A DNA stretch of 64,000 nucleotides from an uncultured Bdellovibrionales bacterium (GCA_903833275.1 CAILEP010000035.1:41602-105601); one strand, 5' to 3'; positions 7,352 through 58,403 are shown, counted from the stretch's first letter. The notes: generated from the letters alone by a model not told the origin. Program-made: numbers and translations.

Positions 7352-8521
7352 TCAGTTCTGTTGGCGCGCAGCAGATTCGCGAACCATCTCAAGAATTTTA
7401 GCTAAGGCCACGTTTAGGTCGTTCTCTTTGGTGAAGCGGCCAATCCCGAAGCGAATAGTGGCGCGGGCGCGAGCCGTAGGCAGCCCAATGGCGGCCAAAA
7501 CATGCGACGGGGCGCCTTGCGAGCAAGCCGAGCCCGCGCTCACGGCTAGACCCGAAAGACTGAAGGCAAAAGCATCGGCCGAAAGTTCAGAAAATGAAAA
7601 ACTGATATTCGATACCAGGCGTTCGCGACGATGGCCATTGAGGTGCGCCGTCGGGATCGCATTGAGAACGCGATCGATAAATTGATCACGCAACAATCTC
7701 AATCTTTCAGTCTCGCTCGTCATCTCTCGTTGGCAAATGTCACAAGCCACACCCAGGCCGACAACACCGGGCACATTCAGTGTTCCGGGCCGAACGCCGT
7801 GTTCTTGGCCGCCGCCGAACTGCAGGGGTAGAAGTTCGATATTTTGCCGAACATAAAGAAAGCCAACGCCCTTTGGGGCATACAATTTGTGGCCAGAAAC
7901 CGAGAGCAAATCAATATTCAAGGCATTGACATCAATTGGCACGCGACCGGCCGCTTGAGCGGCATCAACGTGAAAGATTACATCGTCAGGCAATATTGCG
8001 CCAATCTCGCCAATTGGGTTGATCGAACCAATTTCATTTTGACCAAACATCACCGAAACAAGCCGTGTTGTGGGTCTAAGAGCTTTGCGAACTTGGTCGG
8101 CACTCACTCGGCCGTCGGCGTCAACCGGCAAATAGGTAACTTCAGCGCCCTCTTTTTCAGCCTGATGGGCCACATCCAGAACCGCTTTATGCTCGACCGC
8201 CGTTGTAATCAGATGGGGGCGGTTATTTTTTGCTTCTGTGCTCTTATTTTGCGAAAGCGCCAGGCGCATAACGCCAAATAGGGCCAAGTTATTGGCTTCG
8301 GTGGCGCCACTGGTAAAAACGATTGTTCGTGCCTCGGCACCAAGTAACTGAGCGCACGCAACCCGCGCCTTTTCTACGGCCTGAGAGGCTTGCCAGCCAT
8401 AAGCATGCTCGGTTGACGAAGGGTTGCCAAAATCTTCGCGCAAATAGGGGAGCATAGACTCCAGAACCGAGGGGTCCACTGGGGTCGTCGCGTTATAGTC
8501 TAAATAAATTGGCCGTTCCAT
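7352..8521 (-). CDS. cysteine desulfurase (NifS/IscS class V aminotransferase)
   Basis: 'IYLDYNATTP' N-terminus, PLP-lysine motif 'SVSGHKLYAPKGVG', and active-site Cys loop 'SAGSACS'. Confidence 0.9.
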   Translation of the reverse strand: MERPIYLDYNATTPVDPSVLESMLPYLREDFGNPSSTEHAYGWQASQAVEKARVACAQLLGAEARTIVFTSGATEANNLALFGVMRLALSQNKSTEAKNNRPHLITTAVEHKAVLDVAHQAEKEGAEVTYLPVDADGRVSADQVRKALRPTTRLVSVMFGQNEIGSINPIGEIGAILPDDVIFHVDAAQAAGRVPIDVNALNIDLLSVSGHKLYAPKGVGFLYVRQNIELLPLQFGGGQEHGVRPGTLNVPGVVGLGVACDICQREMTSETERLRLLRDQFIDRVLNAIPTAHLNGHRRERLVSNISFSFSELSADAFAFSLSGLAVSAGSACSQGAPSHVLAAIGLPTARARATIRFGIGRFTKENDLNVALAKILEMVRESAARQQN

Positions 8522-8598
8522 GTTGATCACTTTGTAAATCGGAAGCTAAATAAAGTCTAGCTCCAACAGTCGGCCATAAAAAGTGAGGACGCGCCATA

Positions 8599-9807
8599 AT
8601 GCTCGATGAAAATTTACGGTCGTTTGACCTTTATAATCCTAGCGATGAACATAAAATGTTGCGCGCCTCGGTGCGCGAATTTGTTGTGGCTGAGATTGAA
8701 CCTCAGGCCCTAGAGTTCGACCGAAAAGAGCAGTTTAATTTGCCACTTTTTCGAAAACTCGGTCAGCTTGGCTTGCTCGGCATAAGTGCCCCTGAAGCTT
8801 TCGGCGGCTCGAATATGGACGCTCTCGCCTGTGTGATTGTGCACGAAGAAATAAGTTGGTCTGACCCCGGGTTTGCACTCGCTTATCTCGCCCATGCAAT
8901 GCTTTGTGTAAATAACTTCGCCCGCAACGCCAGTGACGATCTTAAAACGCGTCTTCTGCCGAAACTCTGTTCGGGGGAGTGGGTAGGGGCCATGGCCATG
9001 TCAGAGCCCCACGTCGGCACCGATGTGCTTGGCATGAAGAGCACGGCGAAGCTCGTGGGTGACCATTACGTTATTAATGGCCGCAAAATGTGGATCACCA
9101 ACGGCACCCTCGATGAAAATAAAACTCCAGCCGACGTTTGTATGGTTTATGCCAAGACCGGCGAGAAAAAAGGCCGACCACTTATTTCAACATTTATGGT
9201 TGAGAAATCTCACCCGGGTTATTCTGTCGGGCAAAAGATCAAAGACAAAAATGGCATGCGGGCTTCGAATACGGCTGAAATCGTTTTCAATGATTGCAAA
9301 GTGCCGCGCGCCAATCTGGTCGGCGCCGAAGGCGATTCAATGCTTCATATGATGAAAAATCTTGAAATTGAACGGGTAACATTAGCAGCAATGAGTTTGG
9401 GGATTGCCAAACGTTCGATGCAAGTTATGAATAAATACGCGCGCGATCGCGAGGCCTTTGGGCAACCACTAGCCGCATTCGGGCAGATTCAAAAATACAT
9501 CGGCGAGAGCTACGCCGAATATCAGGCCGCCCGAGCTTACGTTTACGACACCGCTCGCAAAATGGATCTCGATAAGGGTGGTCAGCGTCTCGATACCGAT
9601 GGTGTAAAAATTGTTGCATCAACAATGGCAAAAAATGTCGCCGATCGAGCGATTCAGGTTTTAGGCGGCTACGGCTATGTTGGCGAATACGTGGTCGAAC
9701 GCCTCTGGCGAGACGCTAAATTGCTTGAAATTGGCGGTGGCACGCTTGAAGCGCACCAAAAAAATATTACTAATGATTTAGGTAAAAACCCCGGCGTTCT
9801 CTTTTAG
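8599..9807 (+). CDS. acyl-CoA dehydrogenase (isovaleryl-CoA dehydrogenase-like)
   Basis: 402 aa with typical ACAD motifs 'AMSEPHVGTD', 'KMWITNG' and 'GGYGYVGEYVVERLWRDAKLLEIGGGT'. Confidence 0.9.
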   Translation: MLDENLRSFDLYNPSDEHKMLRASVREFVVAEIEPQALEFDRKEQFNLPLFRKLGQLGLLGISAPEAFGGSNMDALACVIVHEEISWSDPGFALAYLAHAMLCVNNFARNASDDLKTRLLPKLCSGEWVGAMAMSEPHVGTDVLGMKSTAKLVGDHYVINGRKMWITNGTLDENKTPADVCMVYAKTGEKKGRPLISTFMVEKSHPGYSVGQKIKDKNGMRASNTAEIVFNDCKVPRANLVGAEGDSMLHMMKNLEIERVTLAAMSLGIAKRSMQVMNKYARDREAFGQPLAAFGQIQKYIGESYAEYQAARAYVYDTARKMDLDKGGQRLDTDGVKIVASTMAKNVADRAIQVLGGYGYVGEYVVERLWRDAKLLEIGGGTLEAHQKNITNDLGKNPGVLF

Positions 9808-11805: not shown

Positions 11806-12613
11806 ATTCGCTGACGCTTTACCTTTTGAAACCCAAGATCTCGGGACGGGTGATTTTCACCTGGCCGGGCGAAATGTTTCGGCCGCTGAAGTGGTCGAGC
11901 GCCTGGCTCCGCACCTGACAGACGCCCGTATGGCACGCATCTCTCAAGTCGTTGGCGAGCGCACCTACTCTGTGGCCGCGGTCGTAGAGCACCTTTACGA
12001 CATTGGCAATATCTCAGCCGTTATGAGGTCGACCGAAAGCTTTGGCTTTTTGCCCTTTCATATTATCGAGCGACCAGGGGCTCGCTACAAAATGTCAGAT
12101 CGCATCTCACGGGGTACGGAGAAGTGGCTTGATATCCGTAAATATAGAGTTGAGTCTCGAGTTCATCAGACTGTCGCCAATGCGCCAGCCAACGAGTTGA
12201 CCAATCTCCTGACCACCGGCCCCGGCAATCCGATTGCGGCTAACCCAACGGCCGATTGTTTCGATTCACTTCACTCAATGGGTTACAAAATCTATGCCAC
12301 CGATCTTGATGCCACGACAACTATCGACGAAATCGATTTGTCGCAAAAAATCGCCATTGTAATGGGTAATGAGCACGAGGGCATTTCGCCTTACGCTCGC
12401 GAGCATGCCGATGGAAGGGTCATGCTACCCATGTACGGTTTCGCGCAAAGTTTTAATATCTCGGTGGCGGCGGCCCTGACGTTTTCGCAAGTTCACCGGT
12501 CGCGACGCCTGCAGCTTGGCCGAAGTGGTGACCTTACGCCCACTCAAAAACTGAACCTCACCGCCCAGTACTTTTTGCGCACTCTACAAAACGCTGAAGT
12601 TTATTTTAAATAG
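11792..12613 (+). CDS. SpoU/TrmH-family RNA 2'-O-methyltransferase
   Basis: SPOUT motifs 'NISAVMRSTESFG', 'IAIVMGNEHEGIS' and 'IPMYGFAQSFNISVAAAL'. The start is uncertain (ATG at 11777 or 11792). Confidence 0.75.
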   Translation: MADNRFADALPFETQDLGTGDFHLAGRNVSAAEVVERLAPHLTDARMARISQVVGERTYSVAAVVEHLYDIGNISAVMRSTESFGFLPFHIIERPGARYKMSDRISRGTEKWLDIRKYRVESRVHQTVANAPANELTNLLTTGPGNPIAANPTADCFDSLHSMGYKIYATDLDATTTIDEIDLSQKIAIVMGNEHEGISPYAREHADGRVMLPMYGFAQSFNISVAAALTFSQVHRSRRLQLGRSGDLTPTQKLNLTAQYFLRTLQNAEVYFK

Positions 12614-12637: not shown

Positions 12638-13234
12638 TTAGAGTTGTTTTGAATTTTCAGCTTGTGAAAGTTCAGCCTCAAGAGCTTGGCGCTCTTGTTC
12701 GAGGTGAATTTTTTCGCCTGAAAGAGCAGCTCGGCGCATCTGATCTGTAGATTTATCTATAGATTTATCTGCAGATTGATCTTTTAACATTTGATCTATG
12801 GTTTCGATTTTTCTCACGATTTCTTTTTGATTTTTCTGAAGCGCGGTAAATTTCTGACCATTGTTGTAGCCGCGCACAAATTCATCTCGCAAAAATAGCG
12901 GGCAGGTGGTCGATGAGCTTTGTTGGTTTCGTCGACCTTGCTCGAAGGCAACCGGGTAGGTGCAAAACTGCGCAATACCGCTGTCAAAGCCATTCTGATA
13001 AAGCGCCTCACTCAGCGATTGGTCAGTGTCTTCACACAAAACTTTCACCGCGCGCTGGCTATTATCGGCGAGTCCGCGCGAACCGTCGCGTCGGCCCATT
13101 TCGTACCAATCGAGCTCCTGACAAGCTTCTTTGGTGTGTGGGGCATGCGCACAGCCCGGCAGAAAACCAACCGAGATAAGGCTGAGCCCAAGAGCGGCGA
13201 TTAGCTTCGAAGTTGAAGTTAGGGTCATTCGCAT
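12638..13234 (-). CDS. DUF2799-like lipoprotein
   Basis: Signal peptide plus lipobox 'FLPGC', Cys-containing repeats, and a coiled-coil C-terminus. The start is chosen at the Met preceded by GAGG; other in-frame Mets sit at 13228, 13249 and 13255. Confidence 0.55.
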   Translation of the reverse strand: MRMTLTSTSKLIAALGLSLISVGFLPGCAHAPHTKEACQELDWYEMGRRDGSRGLADNSQRAVKVLCEDTDQSLSEALYQNGFDSGIAQFCTYPVAFEQGRRNQQSSSTTCPLFLRDEFVRGYNNGQKFTALQKNQKEIVRKIETIDQMLKDQSADKSIDKSTDQMRRAALSGEKIHLEQERQALEAELSQAENSKQL

Positions 13235-14746: not shown

Positions 14747-17700
14747 TTACTGCGTGCAGTGATAATTGAATTGTTGGCTCGCGGTTGGCGATGCGGAGAA
14801 GTTCATAACCAATGCTGTTGTACTGGCAGAGACATACCACTGGATCGAGCCAGGAAAGCCCGCTGCGGGCGTAATGACGCAGTAAGGAGCCGTGGTATAG
14901 GCTGAGGCAAAAGTAATGGTACAGGCTGTTGGACTTCCGGTGCCTAGGGTTACAACTCCACGGGTATCATTACCCGTAATTGCGGGTGATGTTCCGCAAG
15001 TTCCAACGGTCGCCGCTGTTCCAGAATTCGTAATATGGCCATGAACATCAAGCAGTGCTCCGGGCGCCGTAGTGCCGATGCCGACGTTACCGGTGTCAAA
15101 TGTTGTAGAGGTTCCGTTACGACCTACTGTCATCCAACTTGTACCGGAATTTTTAAAGATGACACTACCGCCGACGCTATTGACGATGGCATTGAATCCA
15201 TCGCCGACACCAAAAGAGGCGCCTCGCGAATTGGTGGTATCGGTAAACAGCGCTATGGGCGAAGCCGAGGACTGAACGTCCAGCCTTTGAGCCGGGCTCG
15301 TCGTGCCTACACCAACATTGCCATTCGTGAAATTAACGCTGCCGGTGCCGAGCGATGCGATGTTGAGAGAAATATTGGTGTCGGTGCCGCCCGCGACTCC
15401 AAGGGTCGGAGCTGAGCCATTTGATGCATTAGTAATATTAAGGCTATTTGTTGACGTATTTGCAGTTGTGTTGCCGCTTGAAAAGCTTAGAAATTTATTG
15501 CCGTAATTGATGTCAGTCATTGTGACAGAAGAAGGGAACCGCCACGAACCTGAATAGAGCCCAAGGACTGTTGAACCGCCGGCGACAAAAGAGAAACCGC
15601 CGTCACCATTGGCTTTAAAACCTGAATTTGTATAGTTCGTAAATGAATACGAAGGCGCAGCGGCACTTCCATTCGGCATGAATATCTGACCACTGCCAAT
15701 CGTGAGTGCGGCAGATGGGCTTGTCGTGCCGATTCCAACGTTGCCGGCTCCATTCAAAGTCATGACTTGCTTCGTTCCAACCGTGGCTGCTCCATCTACT
15801 CCGTAATTCCATAAGTAAAAATCAATCGCATTGTCGCCCGCGACCCCACTACTGTGCCTGGTCTTAATCGAATGTTGATATGACGTACTGTTGTTGTATG
15901 CGAACACGATCTGGTTGTTTCCAAAATAACTTGCTGAATTGCCCGCACGGAGACCGATGGCTGTGTTACTTCCAGTTCCGCCACCTGATTGATTTACGTC
16001 TAACAAATAGCTTGGCGCCGTAGTGCCGATGCCGACGTTGCCGCCTGTGAATGTCGCCGCATAGCCAGCTCCGGATTGCGCGACCGCTAAAGCCGTGTTC
16101 GCACTATTTGTATTTATCGTCTCTTGAACCGTCGTGATTCCGTTTCCGCCGGTTTGAGTGACGCCACCGCTTAGCGTCCATCCGCTGCCGTAAGTTTTCG
16201 TTAAAGTGCCGTCACCCAAGTAGATGGTTCCGGACTGACCAGCCCCTGTGATGCCGTTGTTAATCTTAACAAAACCGGTTTCGACATCGAGACCATAAGC
16301 TGGCGCCGTCGTTCCGATTCCAACGTTGCCGGCCGAGGAGATAGTCATTCGATTCGTGCCGTTTGTTGTTGTAGAGTTTGCAGCGGTATAAAAATTAATA
16401 TCAGTGGCTGCATTGAAGTAACCAGAACCTCCTCCAATTAAAACAGAACTTGTAGATGAGGTATTTGCTCCCAAGATTATGGCCTGGGGACTTTGAGCCG
16501 AGTTGTAATGTGGCATGCCAATTCTTGCGGCCTTATTTGTAGCGTCGGTTCGTGTTTTTAGAACATTATCCGCTCCAATAATTAGTCCTATGGTTCCATC
16601 GGAGATATCTAGTGAAGCACCGGGGCTTATCGTCCCAATCCCGACGCGCCCACTTGAATCAACTCGGAGGCGTTCAGAACCCCCTGTAGAAAGGGCTATT
16701 GCGCTTGCAGCAGGTTGCCATAATCCAGACGCTGTATCTGCCGAGAACGTATGAGATGGGAGGGCAGCGGTGCCTTGAGAGGCCGCAATCACGCCGCCCG
16801 AATAAATGTTTCCGGCAATTCCAACGCCTCCGCTGACCGTTAAAGCGCCCGTCGTGGTCGATGTAGATGCCGTCGAATTAGTGACCGCTCCGGTGCCGGC
16901 ACTCGTAAAGCCGCCGGTTAAGGTCGAAAGGCCCGTTACCCCTAAAGTCGTACCTACGGTGGCCGCGTTCGTGACCGCGAGGCCCGTACCTGTACCCGTG
17001 ATCGAGACATCACCTGAGAACGTGTCGTTTCCGGCGATCGTCTGGCCACCGGCGGTCGTTGCAAGCGTGAGCCGTGAGGCCGACGAATTCGTGTAATAGA
17101 GACTTGTGCCGTCGTATTCGACAGCGCCTGCTTCAGGTGTTGAAAGTAAGGTGCCTGAGTTAAATTTCAAAGGCGATGTTCCAGCGGTTGCAGTGCCGGC
17201 TTTTAACGTCAAGATTGCACTCGGTGAAGTTGTTCCGATTGCCGTTTGACCGCTTGAATTGATCCGCATTCTTTCGGTGCCACCAGTTGACCAAGCAATA
17301 GAGCTCGCTGCTGGCTGCCAAAGCCCTGAAGCCGTATCCGCCGAAAATGTATGCGATGGCAGGGCCGCCGTACCTTGCGACGATGCAACGACGCCGCCGA
17401 GATAAATATTTCCGCCAACGCCAATGCCGCCACCGACAGTCAATGCACCGGTTGTCGTCGATGTTGAAGCCGTGTTGCTGGTGATCGCACCAGCCGCCGC
17501 ACTTGTGAATCCGCCGGTTAAGGTCGTAAGACCCGTTACACCTAAAGTTGTTCCAACCGTTGCGGCGTTTGTTACTACGAGGCCCGTTCCGCTTCCGGAC
17601 ATCGTGACGTCTTGAGAAAACGATTGCGAGCCTGCACCGTTGGTAGATGCGATTGTTCGACGAGTCGCGGTCCAGTCCGTGTAGTAAAGACTTGTTCCGT

Positions 17701-20695
17701 CGTATTCGATCGCGCCCGAAAGCGGTGTCGTGAGATTCACGCCCGAAGTTAACTGCAAAGGTGCAAGCGTTGCGGTGCCGGCTTTAATGTTTAAAAGTGC
17801 GGTCGGAGAAGTGCTTCCGATTCCAACTCGGCCAGAGGTATCGACGGTCACTTGAGTCGTGCCGCCGGTTACAAGGCTTAAATTATTTGCGTCAGCAGTA
17901 CCAATCGATGCCGCAGCTCCAAAGCTGTTGCCGCCAGTTTTAAAATATCTCGAGTCGTATCCGCCCGAAGGAAGATCTGCTGCAGCCAGCGCACGGAATG
18001 TTGGCGTCGCATTTCCGCCGCTCGAGGGACCTGCAAAAACAGTATTTGCGACTTGGGTCGCGAAGGCAGAACCCGTGATGGAAATACTTGAGCACGTCCA
18101 TGATCCGCTCGGTGAAATAAACGTCAGAGTTTGGTTACTCGCGCAGATGGCCGGCATTTGCGAAGCATTGATCATGTTGCCGAGCTGAGTGGAAAGACCA
18201 GATACATCGGAGATCGCAATCGCGGTATTCACCCAGTTCGTGCCGTTGTATTTTAAATACTGTGACGATGCGAGTGATGAAATGCTGTAGGCGACACCAT
18301 TGAGTCCGGTGTTCGTGATAACCCCTGCGTTCGTCATGGTCACGTCGCCACTTGGTGTGACGGCCGTTGCGACACTTGATCCGTTACCGACCCAGATACT
18401 GCCAGAGGCAAGAGTTGAAGTTTGCTTATTATTAAATGTCATAAAGTCAGCTTGAGCCAGGTATCCATCTTGAGTCGCACTCGATTTTGAAATCGAGATC
18501 GCGGGTGTCGCTCCAGCCGAAGACGAAAGTGGTGCTGTTGCGGTGACACTTGTAACCGAACCAGTCGCGGGAACGATCCACGACATATTTCCGCTCGTAT
18601 CACTTGATAAAACGTAACCGGATGTGCCCGGAAGAGCAGGTGGAAGTTTTAAAGCGTAAGACGTTGTAATTGTGGCTGGCGCCTGAAGAGTTGCTGTCTT
18701 CGGCGTGCCTTCACTGTCATTAAGAACAACGCTTGAAAGAGTCGCGTTTGTCGCGGCGAAATTTCCCGATCCATCACGCTTCATCAAAGTCGAAACCGTG
18801 TTGGTGCTAACCGCGCCGTTCGCGAGTAGCTCTGCCGCGTGAACGTTAGCGGCCGTCGAACCACCAACGCTTGCAACAACGGTTGCCCCTTGAGTGCCGG
18901 TGACGTTACCGGCAAGTGAGCCCGTGAAATTTGTTGCGGTGGTTGCGGTTGTCGCAGTCGTTGCACTTCCAGCCGTCAGAGCGCTTTGTGCCGTACAGGT
19001 CCAACCGGTCGTCGTGTTCCAAGTGAGAAGCTGGCCTGATGCGCAGGCAAGGGGTGCCAGCGTAGATCCGTCGTTGGAATCCGTCGCGACGAGTTGGCTG
19101 ACACCTGGGTTCGTAAATAATTTGGCGGTCGTGATGGCGCCGTTGTTAATTTTGGCCGTCGTCACCGCATTCGCGTTGATCGTTGGATTAGGATATGTGC
19201 CGCCAAGATCGCCGCCCGCAGAACCACCAGGCGTCACACCTGTGATCGTAACGTTTCCGGCGTTCGTCAGCTGACCTTGAGCATTAACCGTAAAACTGGG
19301 GACTTGGGTCGCTGAACCGTAGCTTCCTGCGGTGACCGCAGTGTTTGCAAGGTTCACCGTGACCGAGCCCGAGGTGCCACCACCGCTTAAGCCGGTCCCT
19401 GCCGTAATGCCGGTCAATGTACCGACTTGCGGAGAGTTCCACGAAAGATTTCCCGAAGCATCCGTCGTTAGAACTTGCCCGGCGCTGCCAAGAGTTGGTG
19501 GAAGTGTGAGCGAGTAACTATTAGCTAAGTTCGAAACCGTTTGAAGTGTGACTTCATGAGAACCTGAATCATAAATTTGAACGTTTCGGCCGGTGATGTT
19601 TGTGCCCGAGATCGTTGAAGCCACAACCGAGTTTGTGGTCGTAATCAAACCCGATGTGTTAATCGCGGTCGTTCCACCAATTGTTCCCGAATTGATTGCA
19701 CCGCCGAGGACATGACCTGCTGTTTGGATCGTCGGCAGATCAGTTTCAACTAATGAGCTCGATCCGGTGACTCGTCCGTATTGGTCAACGGTCACTTTCG
19801 GATACGTGCCGGCTGTCACTCCACTTGGCGAAAGCGAGATCGTTCCCGATGTCGTGATCGGACCGCCCGTAAGACCTGCTCCGGTCGCAACTGAAGTCAC
19901 CGATCCGCCCGAAGTCCCGATGGTTTGGGTTGAAGTGCCGGTGCTAAACTCAATGCTGTTTGAGCCGGAGTCATACCAAATCTGCCCTGCCGACGGCGAA
20001 GTCGGCGCCGAAGAAAGAACGGGCAAACTCGCTCCGCCCGAAGAAGCGTGCATGTACTGGGTGGATAATCCACCAATCAAATTTTGAAGCTCGGTGAAAT
20101 TCGCGGGACTCAGTGCCGTCGCCGGCTGGGCGTTGCCGCTGCTATCTTCAACTCTGACAAGCGATGACAGTGGAGCACCGCCAACAGCCGATGAGTCCGT
20201 GGCGTAGGCCGAATGGGTCAACGTTGTGACCGGCATTTGATCCCAGGTTGCCATCGCACTGTCTTTAAAATAAATCAAGACCTTGCGTTCATCCGAAGCG
20301 CCCGGCGTATATGTTACGGTCCCCGAACCTGATGCACAGTTCGTGGATGCGACCGGAAACGAGCTTCGGTTTGCAAGGGTTTGCGCAAACGTCCATGTGT
20401 TCGTGTCGTTTCTGGTTCCAGTTCCGTCGTTAAGGGAAACTGAAAAAAGACCCTGCGAATTCGCCAGGTTTTTGGTCTGGGTCTCATCGTAAAGAATGCA
20501 CTGGTGATCTGGACTCAAAACCTGAACACGGAACTGCATCGCCGTTGATTTAAACGGCGTTCCGTTTGCGTCCGCGATGCGGCCTTGGAGCGTGAGAGAC
20601 TGCGCAAGAGAACTTTCAGAATAGAAAAAGGCCACGACAACCGTCGCGAGACACAAAGCAAGTTTGTTGATACGGAAAGACCTCGTTTTTTTCAT
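14747..20695 (-). CDS. giant secreted repeat fibre/adhesin (phage-tail-fibre-like; resembles Bdellovibrio mosaic adhesive trimer fibres)
   Basis: 1982 aa from the Met at 20695, with signal peptide [33 protein letters not shown]. The composition is Gly/Thr/Ser/Ala-rich. The N-terminal half has phage-tail-fibre repeats ('[21 protein letters not shown]'). The C-terminal half has 8 copies of 'G-N-V-G-I-G-T-T-(S/A)-P'. The tip is Cys-containing. Confidence 0.8.
16622..17833 (-). repeat. diverged tandem duplication (~582 and ~600 nt units) inside the fibre gene
   Basis: Two ~195-aa units each run from a GxxxIG(T/S)(T/I)SP motif through '...[13 protein letters not shown]...[15 protein letters not shown](T/S)TLTGGFTSA...[24 protein letters not shown]...'. 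The motif copies lie at 17804-17833, 17222-17251 and 16622-16651. Confidence 0.85.
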
Positions 20696-20860
20696 AGACC
20701 TTAAAGAACTCATCGGCGAAATCGCCGATAGTCTTTGCAGGGCTTTAGGCAATAAAAATGATCTCTACTCACATTGAGATTAAGGTCCGAATCTCGTTAT
20801 GGACCAGGAGATTGCGATGCAGGTAAATCATTTTGATCTACAAGACCCAAGATAAAGGTC

Positions 20861-23137
20861 TTAGTAATCAAATAAAAGTCGCATTTCGACGGTCGAGAAA
20901 ATCGCGCTGTGCTCGCCGTGTTCGGTGACCTGGGGATCAGAATAATTAAAGTGCAGATCGTTATACTGACCGAGCCAGTGGAGTCCAAGCCAAGCGTGCT
21001 CGGAAATATTTTTTTCTATTCCGATCGAGCCGTCGAAAATAAACGGTGAGGTCACCGTAAAGGTAGCGCCCGAGGATGTGGGTGAAGCCGATAGCGGATA
21101 CTGAAAATGCATTAAGATACTGGCTCGCGTCCACGGGTTGAGGTAACGCACGTAACTTCCGCCGAGGCTTAAATTGATGAGGTCGACATTTCGTAACGTC
21201 GGCAGATTTCCAGAGTTTTCAAAAAGAGCGAGCGGGATCTGGTGTAACTGAAGGCCCCACAGCCAACGAAATTCAGAAATATAAGGAAGATTTGTGTTGG
21301 GCGCGGGCGTAAATAGCAAGTTCGACCGGCTGGATCCTTCGAGCGTCATGATTTGCCACTGCGCATGCGTCGTCGAAAGTCCGACCGACGAGTTATCAAA
21401 GCTTAAATCCGTTGAGCGCAACGAAACACCTACGTCCACTTTGTCTGTTACTTCAAAGTTCGCACCAAAGTTCCAACTTTCAGTTGGAAGGCTGTGATAG
21501 CTGGTTTGAACGTCAAAAAGATTTTCTTGATAAGCGAAGTAAGTGGCTCCGACTCCGGCAAAAAGCTTAAGGCCAATCGGCGGCCGTTTTGGAGGGGCGC
21601 TGGCGGTTGCTTGAGGTAAGGGAGCCGTAACCGGCGGATCGATCCTAGGGACCGGCGGCAGCTCTCGTGGCGCGGGTGGTTGGGGAATAACCAGGGGAAC
21701 TGGAGGCAGTTCTAAAGCCCGCACTTGAACAGATTCAGAAGGTGGTACATTCGAAACCGGCTTAAGGATCGATTCAATGACTTTAAGTTGGGCCGGTGGA
21801 GTCACCGAAACTGGAGGTGGTGGCGCAACAGTTGTCGTCGTTGGTGCCAGTGTGGTTGTGGTTGATGGAATGAGGGACGTGGGTGGAGCGGGCACTAGAG
21901 TCGTCGGAGTTTCCGGCGGCACCTGAGCAGGCTCGCGCGGCGCTAAAACCGGCGCATCAACGATGACGTTGATAATACCTGTCTGGGAAATCAGATCAGG
22001 GCGATTTTTCGCCTTTGAGGTCACACGCCAGTACAGTGTTCCCTCTTGAAGTCGGTTCAGCGCAAATTCAGTTTTTTCGACTTCAATCGCGTCCTTGATG
22101 TCGTGAAAGTCAGAACTGACAGACGTTTCAATCCGAAAGAAATCACTTCCAACAAGGTCCTTCCAAAGAAGAGTCGCTGACTGATCGAAGCGACCCTTGT
22201 CGTCCCGCTTGACATGAAATTCCATTTTTTCTTTTTCGAGCTGCGGTGGTGTCAGTGGATTTAAAGAAAAACTAGAGACAGGGCTTTGATCAGAACCCGG
22301 CTCCTCGCCGACGATACGCCAGAAATAAGTGGCCGATGGCTTTAGCAGCGTCGTGGCGTTTTCGCCTTCGACGGTGATCGTTTGAAGGTCGGCTTTAAAT
22401 TCAGGATCCTGGGAAACCTCAAGCCGCATCGACTTTGTTAAAGACGGAGACCAGGCAAATTCGACCGGCTTTCCGTCATCCCATAACGTCGCAGCCGGTT
22501 CAGGGCTCAGAAGCGTCACGGCGTGAGTCGTCATTTGAGTTTGTCCGCCAGCTGAAATTTTTAACTCTTCGTTCGCTTTAACGACCTGTGGCTCAGTGGA
22601 CTTCGATGCATTTGTGACGTTCGCTTCACCATGTAAAACAACGAGATTCAGATCGTCACCGGAAGCGCCCAGCCGAATCGTCGCTCCGTCAGAGGTGACA
22701 TTAGTTTCCCTGCCCTTGTACTTCACAAGCAGAGTAACGCCTTTTCTAATGTTAGTTAAAAATCCTCCCGCGCTTAAATTCACGGCCGACTTTTTGTTTT
22801 CGTCAGAAATTAAAATCGGGCTATTGGGTTCAACCGTAAAATTCTCAAGGTTTTTAAGTTTAACCTTCGCTGCAGATTTTTCTCCAGTGAATACGCGATC
22901 ATTTGAAAAAACATTGGCGTCTCTAGAAACGGGGCTCCAAGACACGTCTGTGTCGCCTTTAATCCGGATATCTGCGCCGACGGGTTTAACAGAGCCGAGA
23001 CTTTCGCGTGCGTTGGTAATATCAGACCTGTCGTTGCGATTGAAGAAAAGGTATCCACCGGAACCGAGCATTCCGATCAAACAAAAAAACATTAAGATGA
23101 ATTCTGGTCTTCGTCGCCAGCCCGTGGAGCGAGACAT
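20861..23137 (-). CDS. FecR-domain protein with two Ig-like repeats, a ~115-aa Pro/Thr-rich linker and a C-terminal outer-membrane beta-barrel-like domain
   Basis: 758 aa with an N-terminal hydrophobic anchor (FILMFFCLIGMLGSGGYLFF). A FecR-like segment follows (VFSNDRVFTGEKSAAKVKL...), then repeats ending YFWRI and LYWRV, then a PPxP-rich stretch. The last ~260 aa have alternating hydrophobic strands and end in the OMP beta-signal 'VEMRLLFDY'. Confidence 0.7.
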   Translation of the reverse strand: MSRSTGWRRRPEFILMFFCLIGMLGSGGYLFFNRNDRSDITNARESLGSVKPVGADIRIKGDTDVSWSPVSRDANVFSNDRVFTGEKSAAKVKLKNLENFTVEPNSPILISDENKKSAVNLSAGGFLTNIRKGVTLLVKYKGRETNVTSDGATIRLGASGDDLNLVVLHGEANVTNASKSTEPQVVKANEELKISAGGQTQMTTHAVTLLSPEPAATLWDDGKPVEFAWSPSLTKSMRLEVSQDPEFKADLQTITVEGENATTLLKPSATYFWRIVGEEPGSDQSPVSSFSLNPLTPPQLEKEKMEFHVKRDDKGRFDQSATLLWKDLVGSDFFRIETSVSSDFHDIKDAIEVEKTEFALNRLQEGTLYWRVTSKAKNRPDLISQTGIINVIVDAPVLAPREPAQVPPETPTTLVPAPPTSLIPSTTTTLAPTTTTVAPPPPVSVTPPAQLKVIESILKPVSNVPPSESVQVRALELPPVPLVIPQPPAPRELPPVPRIDPPVTAPLPQATASAPPKRPPIGLKLFAGVGATYFAYQENLFDVQTSYHSLPTESWNFGANFEVTDKVDVGVSLRSTDLSFDNSSVGLSTTHAQWQIMTLEGSSRSNLLFTPAPNTNLPYISEFRWLWGLQLHQIPLALFENSGNLPTLRNVDLINLSLGGSYVRYLNPWTRASILMHFQYPLSASPTSSGATFTVTSPFIFDGSIGIEKNISEHAWLGLHWLGQYNDLHFNYSDPQVTEHGEHSAIFSTVEMRLLFDY

Positions 23138-23260
23138 TTAGATATAGATCGGCTTAAAATGAGATAACCTAGATGAGCTTTGGACGATTTATGGGAGATT
23201 TCGACCTAGGTCTCGTGACGATTGTCGATCATGACCTACGTCAACGATTCGAGGGGCTGA

Positions 23261-23542
23261 TTATTGCGTCTGGCCGATGACGTTGAGCTGGTATCGGTTG
23301 CCCGAGATGGTCGTGCCTTGGAGGTCTTTTAGATTCGCACCAAGCGACACGCTCGCCGTGCCGCCGAGCTGAGTCGACTTTTGCAAAAACCCGCCGTTTG
23401 CCACGCCGAGGCCAGGGGCATAGGTCGCCACCGTATCCGGATTGTTCGCACGATTTCCTAGAAACGTAACGGTGTTTGTCTTGTTGCACGCTAAAAGCGA
23501 CAGCTGGGCCAATATGAAAACGCTATATTTAAGCCACTTCAT
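23261..23542 (-). CDS. small lipoprotein
   Basis: 93 aa with signal peptide plus lipobox 'LSLLAC'. It sits on the same strand as, and upstream of, the FecR/barrel gene. Confidence 0.6.
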   Translation of the reverse strand: MKWLKYSVFILAQLSLLACNKTNTVTFLGNRANNPDTVATYAPGLGVANGGFLQKSTQLGGTASVSLGANLKDLQGTTISGNRYQLNVIGQTQ

Positions 23543-23574
23543 GATACCGGTTATCGGCGTTTTGATCGAATTTC

Positions 23575-23985
23575 TTAAGCACGACTTTTAGCCGGAGCTC
23601 TTGGTTTTTTTGGCGTCTTCTCTGCCGTGGTATCGCGAATAGACTTATTTGGTTTATGTCTTTGGGATGCGCCGTAAGGGATAAAGGAAAATGCCCCGGC
23701 GAGAACGCCTTCGAGTTCGACGGCATTTAGATTTTGGCTTTGAAGCTGCATAAGCATTCCGGCAAGTTCACCGGCCTTCATTTCAATTCGGACTAAATCG
23801 GCGATGACGGCCGATGTCGGTTTTTGGGCTTTATGCACGATATAAAGTGCCAAGGTGCTTGTTAGAAGATGGTTGAGAGCCGACGAGAGTTGGCTGGGCG
23901 TCAGTGGCCGAACCGTGATGGGCTTCGCCTTCGTCTGGTGGACCGCCTTTCTAATTTTTGATTTCAAGGTCCCCTCCTTCACCAT
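23575..23985 (-). CDS. hypothetical basic protein
   Basis: 136-aa ORF with Lys/Arg-rich termini and no recognisable motif. It is the first gene of the minus-strand cluster and diverges from the XRE gene. Confidence 0.4.
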   Translation of the reverse strand: MVKEGTLKSKIRKAVHQTKAKPITVRPLTPSQLSSALNHLLTSTLALYIVHKAQKPTSAVIADLVRIEMKAGELAGMLMQLQSQNLNAVELEGVLAGAFSFIPYGASQRHKPNKSIRDTTAEKTPKKPRAPAKSRA

Positions 23986-24101: not shown

Positions 24102-24314
24102 TTGGTTAAGATACGGAAAATATTTTCAAAAAACCTGACGCGCTTAAGAAAACGAAAAGGATTTACCCAGGAAGACCTTGCCGAAAAACTCGGGATCTCC
24201 GTGCGCTATATCCAACAACTCGAAGGCATCAGGTGTCCCGATGTAAAGATTGAAACGATCGCGGTCCTTGCCAAGGCCCTTCATGCATTGCCCGGAGAAT
24301 TTTTTGAACCCTAA
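24102..24314 (+). CDS. XRE-family helix-turn-helix transcriptional regulator
   Basis: 70 aa; 'LRKRKGFTQEDLAEKLGISVRYIQQLEG' is a classic HTH_3 pattern. The start is TTG. Confidence 0.75.
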   Translation: MVKIRKIFSKNLTRLRKRKGFTQEDLAEKLGISVRYIQQLEGIRCPDVKIETIAVLAKALHALPGEFFEP

Positions 24315-24362
24315 GCCGTTCGTGGAATGTATAAAAAACGATGGCGCGAGAAGAGTCATTGA

Positions 24363-25511
24363 GTGATAAAAAGTCCAGACGAAATTGAGCACGGGCTCGA
24401 GACGACAATTAGGCGTGCGATTGATGACAATCGGATCGTTGGAACCGTCGTCATCGTTGCTCTGAACGGACAGGTGCTTTATCGAAAGGCTTCGGGCTTT
24501 CTTGACCGTGAGGCTCGTCGACCGATGCGAGAAGATACGATATTTCGATATGCCTCGCTAACGAAGCCGATCGTATCGGCTGCGGCACTTTCTCTGATCG
24601 ATTCTGGAAAAATGAATCTCAACGACGAGGTCACGCGCTGGATTCCCGCTTTCAATCCTCATCTTGCGAACGGACAAGCACCGACGATCCGGATTCGACA
24701 TCTTTTAACTCATACTTCGGGCTTAAATTACGGATTTTTCGAACCAGACGGACAAGGACCCTATCATGCACATGGAGTGTCTGACGGACTTGATCATCCT
24801 CATATCAGTTTACAAGAAAATTTAAAGCGCCTTGGGAACTGTCCGCTGCTTTTTGCGCCAGGAACCGAATGGAGATATTCGCTCGCGACAGATGTGCTAG
24901 GCGAAGTCGTGAGCCTTGCCGGCGGAGCAGATCTACAGGCGGTCGTTAGAAATCTTATAACTGGGCCGCTCAAAATGAACGAGACGGAGTTTTGGGCTAT
25001 CGATCCCGATCGTCTTGCGGCTCCCTATGCGGATGGAAACCCTAAGCCATTGAGAATGGCGGTTGAACATCGTCTTCCCTTTCGCGGGGGCATTGCGTCC
25101 TTTTCGCCGGCACGTGCGCTCGACAAAACCGCGTACCCTTCTGCGGGAGCCGGAATGGTCGGTACTGCCGATGATTTTCTGAAGTTTCTGGAGTCCCTTC
25201 GTCAAGGTGGCGCGCCCATTCTTAAGCCAGAGACGGCGCAGGCCATGACCTCGAACCAAGTTGGCGAGATACCAGTCGCGGCACGCGGGCAGGGCTGGGG
25301 CTTTGGTTTTGGATGTGCGGTTGTGACCGATCCGAAAACTGCAAAGACGCCGGCGCAGAATGGAAGTTTTGAATGGGGCGGCGTCTATGGAAACTCTTGG
25401 TGGGTCGATCCGAAGGCGGGTCTCACCGTGGTTGCTCTGACCAATACAGCTTTTGAAGGAATGGACGGAGCTTTCCCAAAGGAAATTAAAGCTGCCGTTT
25501 ACGGATTATAA
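24363..25511 (+). CDS. serine hydrolase, beta-lactamase/transpeptidase-like (class C/esterase type)
   Basis: S-x-x-K motif 'ASLTKPIV', 'LLTHTSGL', a Tyr motif 'WRYSLATDVLG', and 'FEWGGVYGNSWWVDP'. The start is GTG. Confidence 0.85.
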   Translation: MIKSPDEIEHGLETTIRRAIDDNRIVGTVVIVALNGQVLYRKASGFLDREARRPMREDTIFRYASLTKPIVSAAALSLIDSGKMNLNDEVTRWIPAFNPHLANGQAPTIRIRHLLTHTSGLNYGFFEPDGQGPYHAHGVSDGLDHPHISLQENLKRLGNCPLLFAPGTEWRYSLATDVLGEVVSLAGGADLQAVVRNLITGPLKMNETEFWAIDPDRLAAPYADGNPKPLRMAVEHRLPFRGGIASFSPARALDKTAYPSAGAGMVGTADDFLKFLESLRQGGAPILKPETAQAMTSNQVGEIPVAARGQGWGFGFGCAVVTDPKTAKTPAQNGSFEWGGVYGNSWWVDPKAGLTVVALTNTAFEGMDGAFPKEIKAAVYGL

Positions 25512-25647: not shown

Positions 25648-25670
25648 GGATATGTTTGTTAAAATTGGTC

Positions 25671-26255
25671 ATGAGCAATGCCCTGCAGAATCTTCTTAAA
25701 ACGACGGAGACCTTTACCGCAGCCGAAGGCCGCGCTTGCGGTGTTGCCCCGAGTCTACTTGCTTATTACGTGAAGACAGGCCTCCTCGAGCGAGTTTCAC
25801 GCGGCGTTTATCGGAATCTTAAAAAAGACCCTTCTACTCCTATGGAGTGGGCGAATCTGGTGGCGACTGTCGATAGTGTTCCGACCGGAGTTGTATGTCT
25901 TATTTCGGCTCTTGTTATTTATGAAATGACTGAGGAATTTCCAGAGGAACATTGGATTGCTGTACCCCGAGGTCAGTGGCGACCGAAAAGAAAAAATACG
26001 CGAGTCATTTGGCTCACGAATATGAAGCTTGGCCTTACAAAAATAAAAATCGGTAAAAAATCGATCCCAATATTCAATCGCGAGAGAACCGTCGTCGATG
26101 CATTTCGCCTTCTGCCGATTGAAACTGCGATCAAAGCACTAAAAATTTATCTGACGTCGACGGAGTCTCACAACCCGGATCTTCGACGACTTAATGCATA
26201 CGCGAACAAACTTCGCTTCGATATTTCTCCCTACGTCATGGCCCTCACAACATGA
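25671..26255 (+). CDS. AbiEi-family type IV toxin-antitoxin antitoxin (wHTH)
   Basis: 'TFTAAEGRACGVAPSLLAYYVKTGLLERVSRGVYRN' matches the AbiEi_4 N-terminal pattern. Its stop overlaps the next ORF's start (ATGA). Confidence 0.75.
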   Translation: MSNALQNLLKTTETFTAAEGRACGVAPSLLAYYVKTGLLERVSRGVYRNLKKDPSTPMEWANLVATVDSVPTGVVCLISALVIYEMTEEFPEEHWIAVPRGQWRPKRKNTRVIWLTNMKLGLTKIKIGKKSIPIFNRERTVVDAFRLLPIETAIKALKIYLTSTESHNPDLRRLNAYANKLRFDISPYVMALTT

Positions 26256-27112
26256 ATCAATCTATTGAGCGTTCGATTAAAGACAGAGTTAAAAGAATTG
26301 CGCTCGATCAAGGCCGCGAATTCGGCGCAGTTTGGCTCGAAGTTGTTCTTGAGCGCTGGCTCGCACGCATTCATAAATCAAACTACAAAGAGCATTTTAT
26401 TTTTAAGGGCGGAATGTGTCTTCGCGAGTATTTGCCCATTGGTCGCGAGACTCAAGATCTCGATTTCTTACTGAAGGGACTCCCGGCAACTCGAGATGCT
26501 CTCGTGAAGACTTTCGATGAAATCAGTCAGATTGATCTTGAAGACGGCTTTAGCTTCAAAGCCATCAGCGTAAGCGACCTTGCGCATCCACATATGAAAT
26601 ATCCGGGCTTCGCCATCACCATGCGCGCCGAGCTCTCTCAGACCAGAACGCCTCTCAGGATCGACATTGGCATCGGTGACATTGTAAAGCCTCAAAATCT
26701 GACGATTCATCTATCGGAAAACAAGGGCGGTCCGCTCTTTGAAAAAGAAATCGATCTGTGGGCCTATTCGCCCGAGGCGATTTTCGCGGAGAAATTTGAA
26801 ACGGCCGTCAAACGAGATTCTTTGAACAGTCGAATGAAGGACTATCACGACCTTTAATTGCTGGTCGCAGCCGGAATTCTCGATCATGAAAAAACCAGAG
26901 AAGCGATTCGAGCTACATTCAAGCATCGAGGCACAAAGTTGTCGTCCAGTCTTGAGTTTCCCGCCAACGCGATCGAGAAAATGAATACACTTTGGATGAA
27001 TCATCTAAAAAAACTAAAGGCCTCGAAACTGAAACCTGCTTTGCCACCGCACTTTTCTGACGTCCTGGCGGAAATCAACAGATGGACTGAGGCGCTGTCG
27101 CTGAAAGGTTGA
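26252..27112 (+). pseudogene. AbiEii-family nucleotidyltransferase toxin interrupted by an in-frame TAA at 26855-26857
   Basis: 'FIFKGGMCLREYLPIGRETQDLDFLLKG' is the NTase core. ORFs 26252-26857 and 26858-27112 share one frame, and together (~286 codons) they match the usual AbiEii length. The junction reads ...MKDYHDL*LLVAAGILDH. Confidence 0.7.
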
Positions 27113-28665: not shown

Positions 28666-29817
28666 ATGATAGACAGATTGATAAAGCCCCAATTATTGAA
28701 AGCAGCTAAAAGTGCTCTCTTAATAGGGCCAAGGCAAACGGGTAAATCAACTTTGCTTGGGCAACTTAAGCCTGATTTGACAATTAATTTAGCCGATGAA
28801 AATGAGTTTTTAAGATATTCGGTTGAGGCCAATTTGCTGTCGGAGCAAATTCAATCTAACGCTTACAAGCTTGTTTTAATCGATGAAATTCAGCGTATTC
28901 CAAGTTTAATGAATACGATCCAATTTCTATTAGATGATGCGAAGGTGAGAAAAAAACCTTTACGGTTTTTGCTGTCGGGCTCTAGTGCTAGAAAATTAAA
29001 GCGTGGCCATGCCAATCTGCTACCAGGTCGAGTTTTTTCTTACCAGTTATCCGGTGTCTGTGCGGCTGAGGTTTCGTATAGTCTTGATATAAATCGCTGC
29101 ATGAAATTTGGCTTTCTGCCAGAGCCTTTTTTAGAGAAATCTGAGTTTGATGCGCAAAAACTTCTAGAGAGTTATGGTGCCACCTATTTAAAAGAAGAGA
29201 TTCGGTCTGAAGCGCTATCGAGAAATCTTCAAGGGTTCGCTCGCTTTTTGATGGCAACCGCGAGTGTGGCAGGGCAGGTTGTCGATATGTCTAAAATGGC
29301 TTCTAAATCAAAAGTTTCGAGAAGCAGTGCAGCCCGTTTTTTTGAAATACTTGAAGACACCTTGATTGCTCAACGAATTGCCACCTATGAGGGCGCCGAG
29401 GGTGCCGATATTATAAAACACCCCAAGCTCTATTATTTTGATGTTGGTGTACTCAATGGTCTTCTGAATAACTTTGAGTGCTCAGGTGATCGAAAAGGTT
29501 TGTTATTTGAGCATGTGGTTTATAATCAACTTAGAAATTCGTTTATGGCGCGTGATTTTTCAGTTCAAATTGAATACTTCAGAACCAGACATGGCCTTGA
29601 AATTGATTTTATTGTTAAGGTTAAAAATAAGACTTGGGCTATCGAAGTTAAATCTGGTCATGTCACGGATTCTGATTTGCGGGCCTTAAAAGAATTTAAG
29701 CAATACAAGTCATCGGTTGATCATTTCGCTGTCGTCAGCATTAATGAAAAGAAGCGAATGAAAAATGGCATATTAATTTGTGATTTGCCGACGCTTTTGA
29801 ACGAAATGGGGCTTTAG
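28666..29817 (+). CDS. AAA_14 / DUF4143-family ATPase
   Basis: Walker A 'GPRQTGKSTLL' and Walker B 'LVLIDEIQ', with a C-terminal DUF4143-like region ('YFDVGVLN', 'EIDFIV...WAIEVKSG'). It is visibly AT-richer than its neighbours. Confidence 0.85.
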   Translation: MIDRLIKPQLLKAAKSALLIGPRQTGKSTLLGQLKPDLTINLADENEFLRYSVEANLLSEQIQSNAYKLVLIDEIQRIPSLMNTIQFLLDDAKVRKKPLRFLLSGSSARKLKRGHANLLPGRVFSYQLSGVCAAEVSYSLDINRCMKFGFLPEPFLEKSEFDAQKLLESYGATYLKEEIRSEALSRNLQGFARFLMATASVAGQVVDMSKMASKSKVSRSSAARFFEILEDTLIAQRIATYEGAEGADIIKHPKLYYFDVGVLNGLLNNFECSGDRKGLLFEHVVYNQLRNSFMARDFSVQIEYFRTRHGLEIDFIVKVKNKTWAIEVKSGHVTDSDLRALKEFKQYKSSVDHFAVVSINEKKRMKNGILICDLPTLLNEMGL

Positions 29818-33024: not shown

Positions 33025-33053
33025 TTGACACTTAACGTGCCGCATTCTAAAAA
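33025..33053 (+). promoter_or_regulatory. sigma70-type promoter candidate for the giant AAA+/protease gene
   Basis: TTGACA (33025-33030), a 17-nt spacer, then TAAAAA (33048-33053). The ORF-track TTG 'start' is this -35 box. The real ATG at 33091 is preceded by AAAGGGG. Confidence 0.45.
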
Positions 33054-33090
33054 TCGGGCTCTCGTTAATATCTTAGAAAAGGGGCCTTGG

Positions 33091-58330: not shown

Positions 58331-58403
58331 GCCAATATCTTGGCTGAGAAGGTCTAGGTACTCAACAAAACATTTAAAATTAAATCTAAATGTTGCGGCC
58401 GGC

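Follow-up and report, generated by a model that had tools for sequence, protein, structure and literature searches.

The DNA analysed here is a stretch of 64,000 nucleotides (nt) from an uncultured Bdellovibrionales bacterium (the window), and coordinates given without a locus number are positions in it; the loci compared with it carry L-numbers and representative proteins carry P-numbers. Four open reading frames (ORFs) lie side by side on its minus strand, as had been proposed in a first-pass annotation of the sequence. They encode a protein of 136 amino acids (aa; 23575-23985), a 93-aa lipoprotein referred to as p93 (23261-23542), a 758-aa protein (20861-23137) and a fibre of 1982 aa (14747-20695), and the gaps of 32, 123 and 165 nt reported between them are correct. 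The same annotation had proposed that the second and third proteins form a dedicated module for export or anchoring of the fibre. The 758-aa protein belongs to a family that is unannotated and undescribed, and comparison of its loci makes a functional link with the neighbouring adhesin likely.

The layout that had been read for the 758-aa protein, with FecR, immunoglobulin (Ig), proline-rich and barrel parts, was borne out by an AlphaFold2 model and by Foldseek, together with sub-threshold Pfam matches and a family alignment. Nine homologues were used as input for the model, which had a mean predicted local distance difference test score (pLDDT) of 72. All parts are encoded on the minus strand. 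A basic, predicted cytoplasmic tail of about 10 aa precedes an N-terminal transmembrane (TM) helix (aa 11-31; 23045-23107), which was seen both in the model and in the hydropathy profile, where the peak covered aa 12-32. It is followed by a FecR/PupR-like beta domain of predicted periplasmic location (aa 48-205; 22523-22996), identified with Pfam and Foldseek, and by two Ig/FN3-like domains (aa 207-293 and 304-393; 21959-22519), identified in the model, with Foldseek and in the alignment. A proline-rich disordered tether (aa 397-519; 21581-21949; 29% proline, pLDDT below 50) then leads to a C-terminal 10-stranded outer-membrane beta-barrel (aa 522-758; 20864-21574), as assigned with DSSP and Foldseek.

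The ten strands found by DSSP are each about 20 residues long and were modelled with a pLDDT of 80-90 over aa 522-757. When compared with the PDB by Foldseek, the barrel matched Pla (2x56, E 1.4e-7), OpcA (2vdf, TM-score 0.68) and OmpT (1i78), and the N-terminal domain matched the PupR CCSSD (6ovk, E 3.2e-6) and the anti-sigma protein BDI_1681 (4m0h, E 8e-6). FecR was also matched by the relatives P0005, P0007 and P0008 (precomputed PF04773, E of 1e-5 or lower) and by the L017 protein (34.9 bits). The sequence of the TM segment is conserved in the homologues, which keep the motif G-x-YLFF[SN][KR], and this conservation indicates a functional membrane anchor and not a cleaved signal peptide. 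The public gene call for the protein (P0001, 736 aa) begins at Met23 and loses the part at 23072-23137 (minus strand), so that the N-terminal TM helix would be deleted; the homologue alignment backs the 758-aa form, which was also recovered as P0019. Both Ig domains terminate in the motif Y(F/Y)WRV. The C-terminus reads ...RLLFDY, with an aromatic last residue, and most relatives end in the beta-signal ...LRLGYEF. Since the number of strands is even, both barrel termini should be periplasmic, which would place the tether, the Ig domains and the FecR domain in the periplasm; in the model, the chain would thus be anchored in both membranes.

Searches with Pfam, NCBIfam and Foldseek found no POTRA, Omp85, DUF560, tetratricopeptide repeat (TPR) or autotransporter features in the 758-aa protein, and the autotransporter EstA (3kvn) was a weak partial Foldseek match (TM-score 0.2). 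A match of the protein to the LapA retention module (retention_LapA, E 0.078; 13 bits, with the cut-off at 50) and a match to DUF7354 were discarded as being at chance level.

An exhaustive HMMER scan of 1.84 billion representatives placed at least 36 full-length family representatives among the best 150 matches. Word-index searches, which returned about ten relatives, had suggested that the family is extremely rare, and the HMMER scan exposed this as an artefact of sensitivity. A third word-index search (A5) added nothing and missed the L017 protein, and a scan of metagenome contigs with a short FecR block gave zero confirmed loci. The HMMER matches also included proteins that have FecR and Ig domains and lack the barrel, as well as many giants with repeated copies of the Ig domain type found in the 758-aa protein. 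The type ending in Y[FY]WRV occurs up to 24 times in giants, for example P0033 (3818 aa), P0062 (5162 aa) and P0074 (5602 aa), and its presence both in periplasmic spacer domains and in giant-adhesin repeats points to shared ancestry. Keyword searches of the literature returned nothing relevant on a FecR domain tethered to its own outer-membrane barrel or on the cassette that contains it, and nothing relevant for Bdellovibrio with FecR or with SpoIIE.

About one third of the family members carry an extra C-terminal tail beyond the beta-signal, consisting of a short hydrophobic stretch and then RRRR(K); it was found in P0004, P0006, P0007, P0009, P0034, P0035, P0037, P0039, P0043, P0045, P0057 and P0138 and is lacking in the window protein. 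The tail resembles an exosortase/rhombosortase sorting tag, and its position behind the beta-signal of an outer-membrane protein (OMP) is odd. Four tail-bearing members (P0004, P0007, P0034 and P0035) were scanned against NCBIfam, with zero matches to the tail.

The fibre could be assigned to a known class, which the first-pass annotation had not recognised. Mosaic adhesive trimer (MAT) proteins of Bdellovibrio bacteriovorus include Bd2133, Bd1334, Bd2439, Bd2734, Bd2740 and Bd3182, according to Caulton et al. 2024 (PMC10769870). NCBIfam NF053851 (Bdello_MAT_N) matched aa 24-181 of the fibre (20153-20626, minus strand) with an E value of 1.3e-26 and 93.3 bits, against a cut-off of 60. This conserved, beta-rich N-terminal domain, of about 130 aa in MAT proteins, is thought to be the portion located at the predator surface. 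The shaft was similar in phmmer searches to the solved Bd2133 fragment 8ond (E 2.6e-7) and to 8ojn (E 7e-4), and among PHROG families the fibre matched the tail-fibre family phrog_9942 (E 2.4e-17). By these similarities it is a further member of the MAT family, an already described class (PMC10769870), and a homotrimeric, surface-exposed fibre would be expected by analogy with that family. The closest relatives of its N-terminal domain in GTDB genomes were found in metagenome-assembled genomes of Bdellovibrionales and Pseudobdellovibrionaceae and in Bdellovibrio sp. HCB185ZH, and the window thus probably stems from an uncultured predator of the Bdellovibrionales type.

No Pfam domain, SDxxxK motif, Peptidase_S74 match, barrel or RTX repeats were found in the fibre, and the absence of SDxxxK and Peptidase_S74 places it in the non-S74 (NS74) subgroup. 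The view that it has a Sec signal only holds in this respect too, as neither an autotransporter nor a type I secretion system (T1SS) signature was seen. A TTG at 20752 would lengthen its ORF; the ATG at 20695 was preferred, as it yields the classical Sec signal peptide MKKTRSF...SSLAQS. At 1982 aa the fibre is about twice as long as is usual for MAT proteins (about 1000 aa). A recent tandem duplication of a shaft unit of about 195 aa, found by local alignment (aa 958-1150 and 1152-1350; 16646-17824, minus strand; 139 of 198 residues identical, 70%; alignment score 706), helps to account for this length. The fibre shares with the described MAT proteins the order of signal peptide and conserved N-terminal domain, the Gly/Thr/Ser-rich shaft resembling phage tail fibres, a distinct C-terminal tip and, with some of them, the NS74 type. 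It differs from the fibres of strain HD100 in its double length, its 195-aa duplication and its uncultured host, and the association of a MAT gene with FecR-barrel and lipoprotein genes is not mentioned in the available part of PMC10769870.

The product of the 93-aa gene is a small Gly/Ser/Thr-rich protein and, as had been stated, a lipoprotein, with the lipobox LLAC in the context LSLLAC/N. A homologue that is 57% identical heads the orthologous cassette in L003. The 136-aa protein of the adjacent ORF is basic and mostly helical and had zero family matches in Pfam, NCBIfam and PHROG; its AlphaFold2 model (pLDDT 52) was unusable and was left out of the fold search. No homologue of it was found in the related loci, among which only L003 shows sequence upstream of the p93 homologue (298 nt).

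In B. bacteriovorus, attack-phase promoters follow the FliA/sigma-28-type consensus TTAAG-N16-CCGATA (Karunker et al. 2013, PMC3627812). A perfect copy lies at 23552-23578 (minus strand) and is the sole 11/11 match on both strands of the window, where about 0.1 would be expected by chance. The motif shares nucleotides with the stop codon of the 136-aa gene, and 9 nt separate the end of its -10 element from the ATG of p93. No Shine-Dalgarno sequence lies between the motif and this ATG, which suggests a leaderless or near-leaderless mRNA. We read p93, perhaps together with the 758-aa gene, as being under a predicted attack-phase promoter. Given the position of this motif at its stop codon, the 136-aa gene is probably a separate unit outside the module. 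The adjacency and order of all four genes in the proposed cluster stand, whereas the 136-aa gene falls outside the conserved set and the promoter motifs suggest more than one transcription unit.

The motifs before the 758-aa gene and before the fibre gene reach only 8/11, a score that is common by chance (470 per window). The one just before the fibre ATG, CAAAG-N16-CCGATG (20711-20737, minus strand), overlaps a small hairpin. Its position is conserved in L003, where the aligned site is TAAAG-N16-TCGATA (9/11), and little else was conserved when the intergenic sequences of the window and L003 were aligned. FliA-like sites scoring 10/11 were located 7-45 nt from the start codons of both L004 giants (12975-13002 and 20025-20052), the L020 giant (12534-12559), the L014 MAT gene (8988-9014) and the L002 FecR-barrel gene (1194-1220). 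Many of the relatives' adhesins may be made from attack-phase transcripts with very short leaders, and the pattern is read as a tendency of adhesin genes toward promoters of their own. A scan of the cluster for sigma-70 promoters and terminators gave fewer matches than shuffled sequence and zero in the relevant intergenic regions.

Synteny with fibre genes in related genomes had been suggested as a check on the proposed module. We read the neighbourhoods of 12 distinct family loci (the window, L003, L002, L019, L022/23, L004, L005, L020/21, L006, L007, L008 and L009) and verified the neighbour genes by tblastn and hidden Markov model (HMM) scans. The check came out in favour of a link, as in 8 of the 12 loci the family gene is followed, on its own strand and at a distance of up to about 2.5 kb, by an adhesin gene. 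Five of these adhesins are MAT fibres, in the window, L003 (partner 55% identical), L002 (32%), L019 and L022/23, with MAT_N scores of 64-134 bits (cut-off 60). The other three, in L004, L005 and L020/21, are giant Big_13/Big_12 lipoproteins of 2200 to more than 3800 aa, which have an N-terminal region in common and in which MAT_N is absent. A more distant family member in L017 (HMM E 3.9e-15) lies 2.6 kb from another MAT gene. The association spans 28-55% protein identity and includes changes of gene order. The fact that the two cargo types are interspersed on a rough neighbor-joining tree of the family indicates repeated re-association and not a single inherited accident.

In 7 of the 12 loci the FecR-barrel gene is directly preceded by a gene for a HAMP-SpoIIE (PP2C) phosphatase, and in L004 and L022/23 the two genes overlap by 4 nt. 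The encoded protein has two TM helices with a periplasmic domain of about 210 aa between them, followed by HAMP and SpoIIE/PP2C domains, an arrangement shared with SiaA of Pseudomonas aeruginosa and RsbU-type proteins. SiaA was its best NCBIfam match; at 73 bits against a cut-off of 700, the similarity is at the level of domains only. Partner genes of the SiaB/C/D or STAS type were not seen beside it. In L003, the closest relative of the window, the phosphatase gene lies exactly between the p93 homologue and the FecR-barrel gene.

Small lipoprotein genes were found at all five MAT-linked family loci. Those of the p93 type (window and L003) are in an upstream position; those of a second type (L002, L019 and L022/23) immediately precede the MAT gene and in L002 and L022/23 overlap it by 4 nt. 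In L019 the FecR-barrel gene is separated from the lipoprotein-MAT pair by an inverted 309-aa ORF (8475-9404, minus strand) resembling a MAT shaft/C-terminal fragment, which may have been left behind by exchange of fibre tips or may serve as a donor in it.

A different gene pair is located upstream of another MAT lineage (L010, 3739-8720; L011, 1427-6664). In the first protein, of about 420 aa, the signal peptide is followed by an acidic linker and then by a C-terminus that looks like a barrel and ends in ...KDW; Pfam gave no match. The second, a lipoprotein, measures about 350 aa and contains an FN3 domain; its gene overlaps the MAT gene by 4 nt. No similarity was found between the barrel of the 758-aa protein and the barrel-like C-terminus of the 428-aa protein of L010, and a LysM domain read by eye in the latter was not confirmed by Pfam. 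Helix-turn-helix (HTH) regulator genes also occur beside MAT or giant-adhesin genes, namely DUF4423 in L004 (7379-8143) and L008 (4120-5004), TrmB-like in L013 (70-747) and Cro/C1-type in L018 (8085-8912), and these may be dedicated regulators.

The window is chromosomal, encoding SRP54, LptD, SLT transglycosylases and a Mrp/ParA-type ATPase. The cluster adjoins a stretch with an XRE regulator gene, a beta-lactamase-family gene, an AbiEi/AbiEii toxin-antitoxin pair (25656-26857, plus strand) and an AAA_14/DUF4143 ATPase gene (28666-29817, plus strand); the AbiE pair and the ATPase mark this upstream stretch as accessory DNA. The XRE-type HTH gene (24102-24314, plus strand; 70 aa) contains GFTQEDLAEKLGISVRYIQQLE and is divergent from the 136-aa gene. 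At this site the ORF called in the public assembly runs on the other strand; it has 71 aa, belongs to an 82-aa ORF (24144-24392, minus strand) and looks spurious. L020/L021 likewise have an XRE gene, which separates the FecR-barrel gene from that of the giant. Farther along the window, a 1429-aa protein (33025-37314, plus strand) combines STAND/AAA_16-like, Clp/AAA_2-like and FtsH-type Peptidase_M41 domains, an unusual architecture of a protease with several ATPase domains. A CHASE2-adenylate/guanylate cyclase of 930 aa is encoded immediately upstream of LptD on the same strand (55895-61196, minus strand), and no partner with a FecR domain was found adjoining its gene.

The 758-aa protein shares parts with several known systems. 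Like FecA-FecR-FecI and PupB-PupR-PupI, it combines a predicted single pass through the inner membrane with a periplasmic domain that is FecR-like in fold, and conceptually it would transfer information from the outer to the inner membrane. It differs in that a cytoplasmic anti-sigma domain is lacking, only about 10 residues preceding the TM helix, and in that the outer-membrane component is fused to the chain through Ig domains and a proline-rich tether. Neither an extracytoplasmic function (ECF) sigma gene nor a TonB-dependent transducer gene was found in the window cluster or the 11 related loci, where HAMP-PP2C is instead the usual neighbour. The barrel has the fold and height of OmpT, Pla and OpcA (E about 1e-7; TM-score 0.57-0.68 relative to the target), whereas identity is 7-11% and the barrel here is the C-terminal module of a multidomain protein. 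In the Rcs sensor, the outer-membrane lipoprotein RcsF is threaded through OMP barrels and signals to IgaA in the inner membrane. A barrel with a small lipoprotein as the surface-monitoring end would be comparable as a functional analogy, with no relation in sequence or fold claimed; in the present case, the barrel and the periplasmic transducer are one chain.

A barrel gene just upstream of a gene for a very large surface protein or lipoprotein also recalls TpsB/Omp85 translocons, type Va/Ve autotransporters and Slam (DUF560) proteins. These have barrels of 16, 12 and 14 strands, respectively, against the 10 strands found here, and none of their families was matched. The TpsB/Omp85 translocon combines its barrel with POTRA domains, neither of which is present in the 758-aa protein; Slam has periplasmic TPRs and a DUF560 barrel, and both are lacking. 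The autotransporters have a pore-filling linker and carry the passenger on the same chain, whereas the fibre has no barrel of its own. Adhesins of the LapA/LapG type have an N-terminal retention module and a C-terminal RTX/T1SS signal, and the fibre lacks RTX repeats. In its predicted periplasmic part, moreover, the 758-aa protein has a signalling fold of the FecR type with an inner-membrane anchor. A small barrel of the OmpT/OpcA type without POTRA, Omp85, DUF560 or 12-strand features makes it unlikely that the protein is a dedicated export channel. Export of the fibre would be explained more simply if it passed through Sec, folded in the periplasm and then used a general pathway such as type II secretion. 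The proposal of a dedicated export and anchoring module is supported by synteny in its functional link to the fibre and is unlikely to hold as regards an export channel.

The FecR/PupR domain on an inner-membrane anchor and its tight HAMP-PP2C neighbour point to signalling rather than secretion. The reading that we prefer, with a probability of roughly 0.42, is that the protein serves the neighbouring adhesin specifically, as a device for coupling or signalling across the envelope, and forms part of an attack-phase cassette. The locus would then be a surface-adhesin cassette of the attack phase made up of a double-length NS74 MAT fibre, a small outer-membrane lipoprotein and an envelope-spanning protein. 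The barrel, possibly with the lipoprotein, would be the end nearest the surface, where it would sense or hold the fibre or giant adhesin, and the proline-rich tether would be long enough to cross the periplasm and link the barrel to the Ig/FecR part. The FecR-like end may report to a partner in the inner membrane, which in most relatives would be the co-transcribed HAMP-PP2C (SiaA/RsbU-like) phosphatase, the putative output. Such a device would follow the logic of FecA-FecR signalling, except that the outer-membrane component and the periplasmic one are fused and another output takes the place of the sigma factor.

Several observations weigh against this interpretation. The contact of barrel, lipoprotein and fibre that it calls for is a prediction from gene context. 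At four of the 12 family loci no adhesin gene lies close by (L006, which is disrupted by IS66, L007, L008 and L009), and the 12 loci are a small, non-random, metagenome-derived sample with shared ancestry. When the question was reversed, only one of nine other MAT loci in GTDB genomes had a family member nearby (L017) and eight had none, in a set kept to nine by the narrow MAT_N-derived peptide patterns used for the scan; the family is thus not a general route or anchor for MAT proteins. The two lipoprotein types, for which homology was considered, gave nothing in BLASTP and a probability of 0.9% in hhalign. The Pfam matches of the window protein are below threshold for both FecR (PF04773, E 7.4e-5, 23.6 bits against a gathering score of 24) and OMP_b-brl (19.1 against 28.7 bits), and no paper joining FecR, SpoIIE and HAMP was found in the literature searched. 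Finally, no HAMP-PP2C/SpoIIE gene is present anywhere in the window. As the phosphatase is found across the family, its absence here looks like loss or relocation, and in the organism of the window the partner might be encoded elsewhere in the genome or be lost.

Part of the evidence for the preferred reading would also fit a dedicated anchor or export module, in which the N-terminus of the adhesin docks on or threads through the barrel, with or without the lipoprotein, and the FecR/Ig/proline-rich part is a mere staple to the inner membrane or cell wall. The downstream adhesin in 8 of 12 loci favours it, as do the small lipoprotein genes directly upstream of MAT in three loci, the overlapping ones among them, and the giants of L004, L005 and L020, which are themselves lipoproteins with a common N-terminal region. 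A tall barrel with strands of about 20 residues, like those of OmpT and OpcA, could serve as a surface platform; PMC10769870 does not name the MAT anchor; and L010 and L011 show another arrangement of barrel-like protein, lipoprotein and MAT. Yet no trimeric fibre of 2000 aa is known to be translocated through a barrel of 10 strands, the features of translocons and autotransporters are lacking, and most MAT loci have no family member. A single docking surface would have to serve the unrelated N-termini of MAT and Big lipoproteins, and the FecR signalling fold and tight PP2C coupling are left unexplained. We consider this account unlikely, if worth serious attention.

About as unlikely, in our estimate, is co-location without partnership, by which the family would be an envelope-stress or attack-phase regulatory unit that sits in variable surface-protein islands and neither touches nor specifically controls the adhesin. 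Such islands would agree with the accessory AbiE, DUF4143 and XRE genes at the window cluster, with the IS66 and recombinase genes in L006 and L022, and with the four loci without a nearby adhesin. The apparent promoters of the adhesins themselves and the gap of 62-165 nt between the barrel gene and the next downstream gene point the same way. However, adjacency, strand and order are kept over 28-55% identity and with two unrelated cargo families, and by a rough estimate, which is not a measured value, a random gene would have such a neighbour in a few percent of cases. The TM anchor, the periplasm-spanning proline-rich linker and the outer-membrane barrel on one chain, with a putative attack-phase promoter upstream, might also describe a general envelope tether like OmpA, TonB or TolA, concerned with spacing or with the integrity of the invasive pole and having no adhesin-specific or signalling role. 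A housekeeping tether would predict a core-genome context and a single copy per genome, whereas the family occurs in variable contexts beside PP2C sensors and adhesins and has a FecR fold of the signalling type, so that we regard this as highly improbable.

A more specific form of the preferred reading concerns prey contact. A prey-contact sensor, with the adhesin held at the barrel, would be made up of the FecR-barrel protein and the small lipoprotein, joined in most relatives by the HAMP-PP2C protein; we think this quite improbable at present. The step by which engagement of prey by the adhesin tip would be relayed through tether and Ig domains to FecR, mechanically or conformationally, is given just as little credence. 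The same low expectation applies to the last step, in which FecR would switch the inner-membrane phosphatase and so start the programme leading from attachment to invasion.

MAT fibres are proposed prey-recognition adhesins of Bdellovibrio, and PMC10769870 states that the predator-surface partner of their invariant N-terminal domain has yet to be identified; the passage on MAT proteins in a 2025 review names no surface element as the holder of this domain. The present locus and its relatives provide testable candidates for what holds MAT fibres on the cell and for how prey contact is sensed, namely an envelope-spanning FecR/barrel protein paired with a fibre or giant adhesin, a small lipoprotein and, usually, a sensor phosphatase. 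A related question in predation is how attachment is converted into a decision to invade. We rate the FecR-Ig-tether-barrel arrangement as a variation on the components of cell-surface signalling and on OMP tethers. If it were a prey-contact sensor, it would represent single-chain, sigma-independent cell-surface signalling and the first surface element coupling a MAT fibre to the predator cell. Independent of predation, a FecR domain covalently tied to its own barrel would widen the concept of cell-surface signalling, which would no longer be confined to the combination of a TonB-dependent transducer with an anti-sigma factor and an ECF sigma factor.

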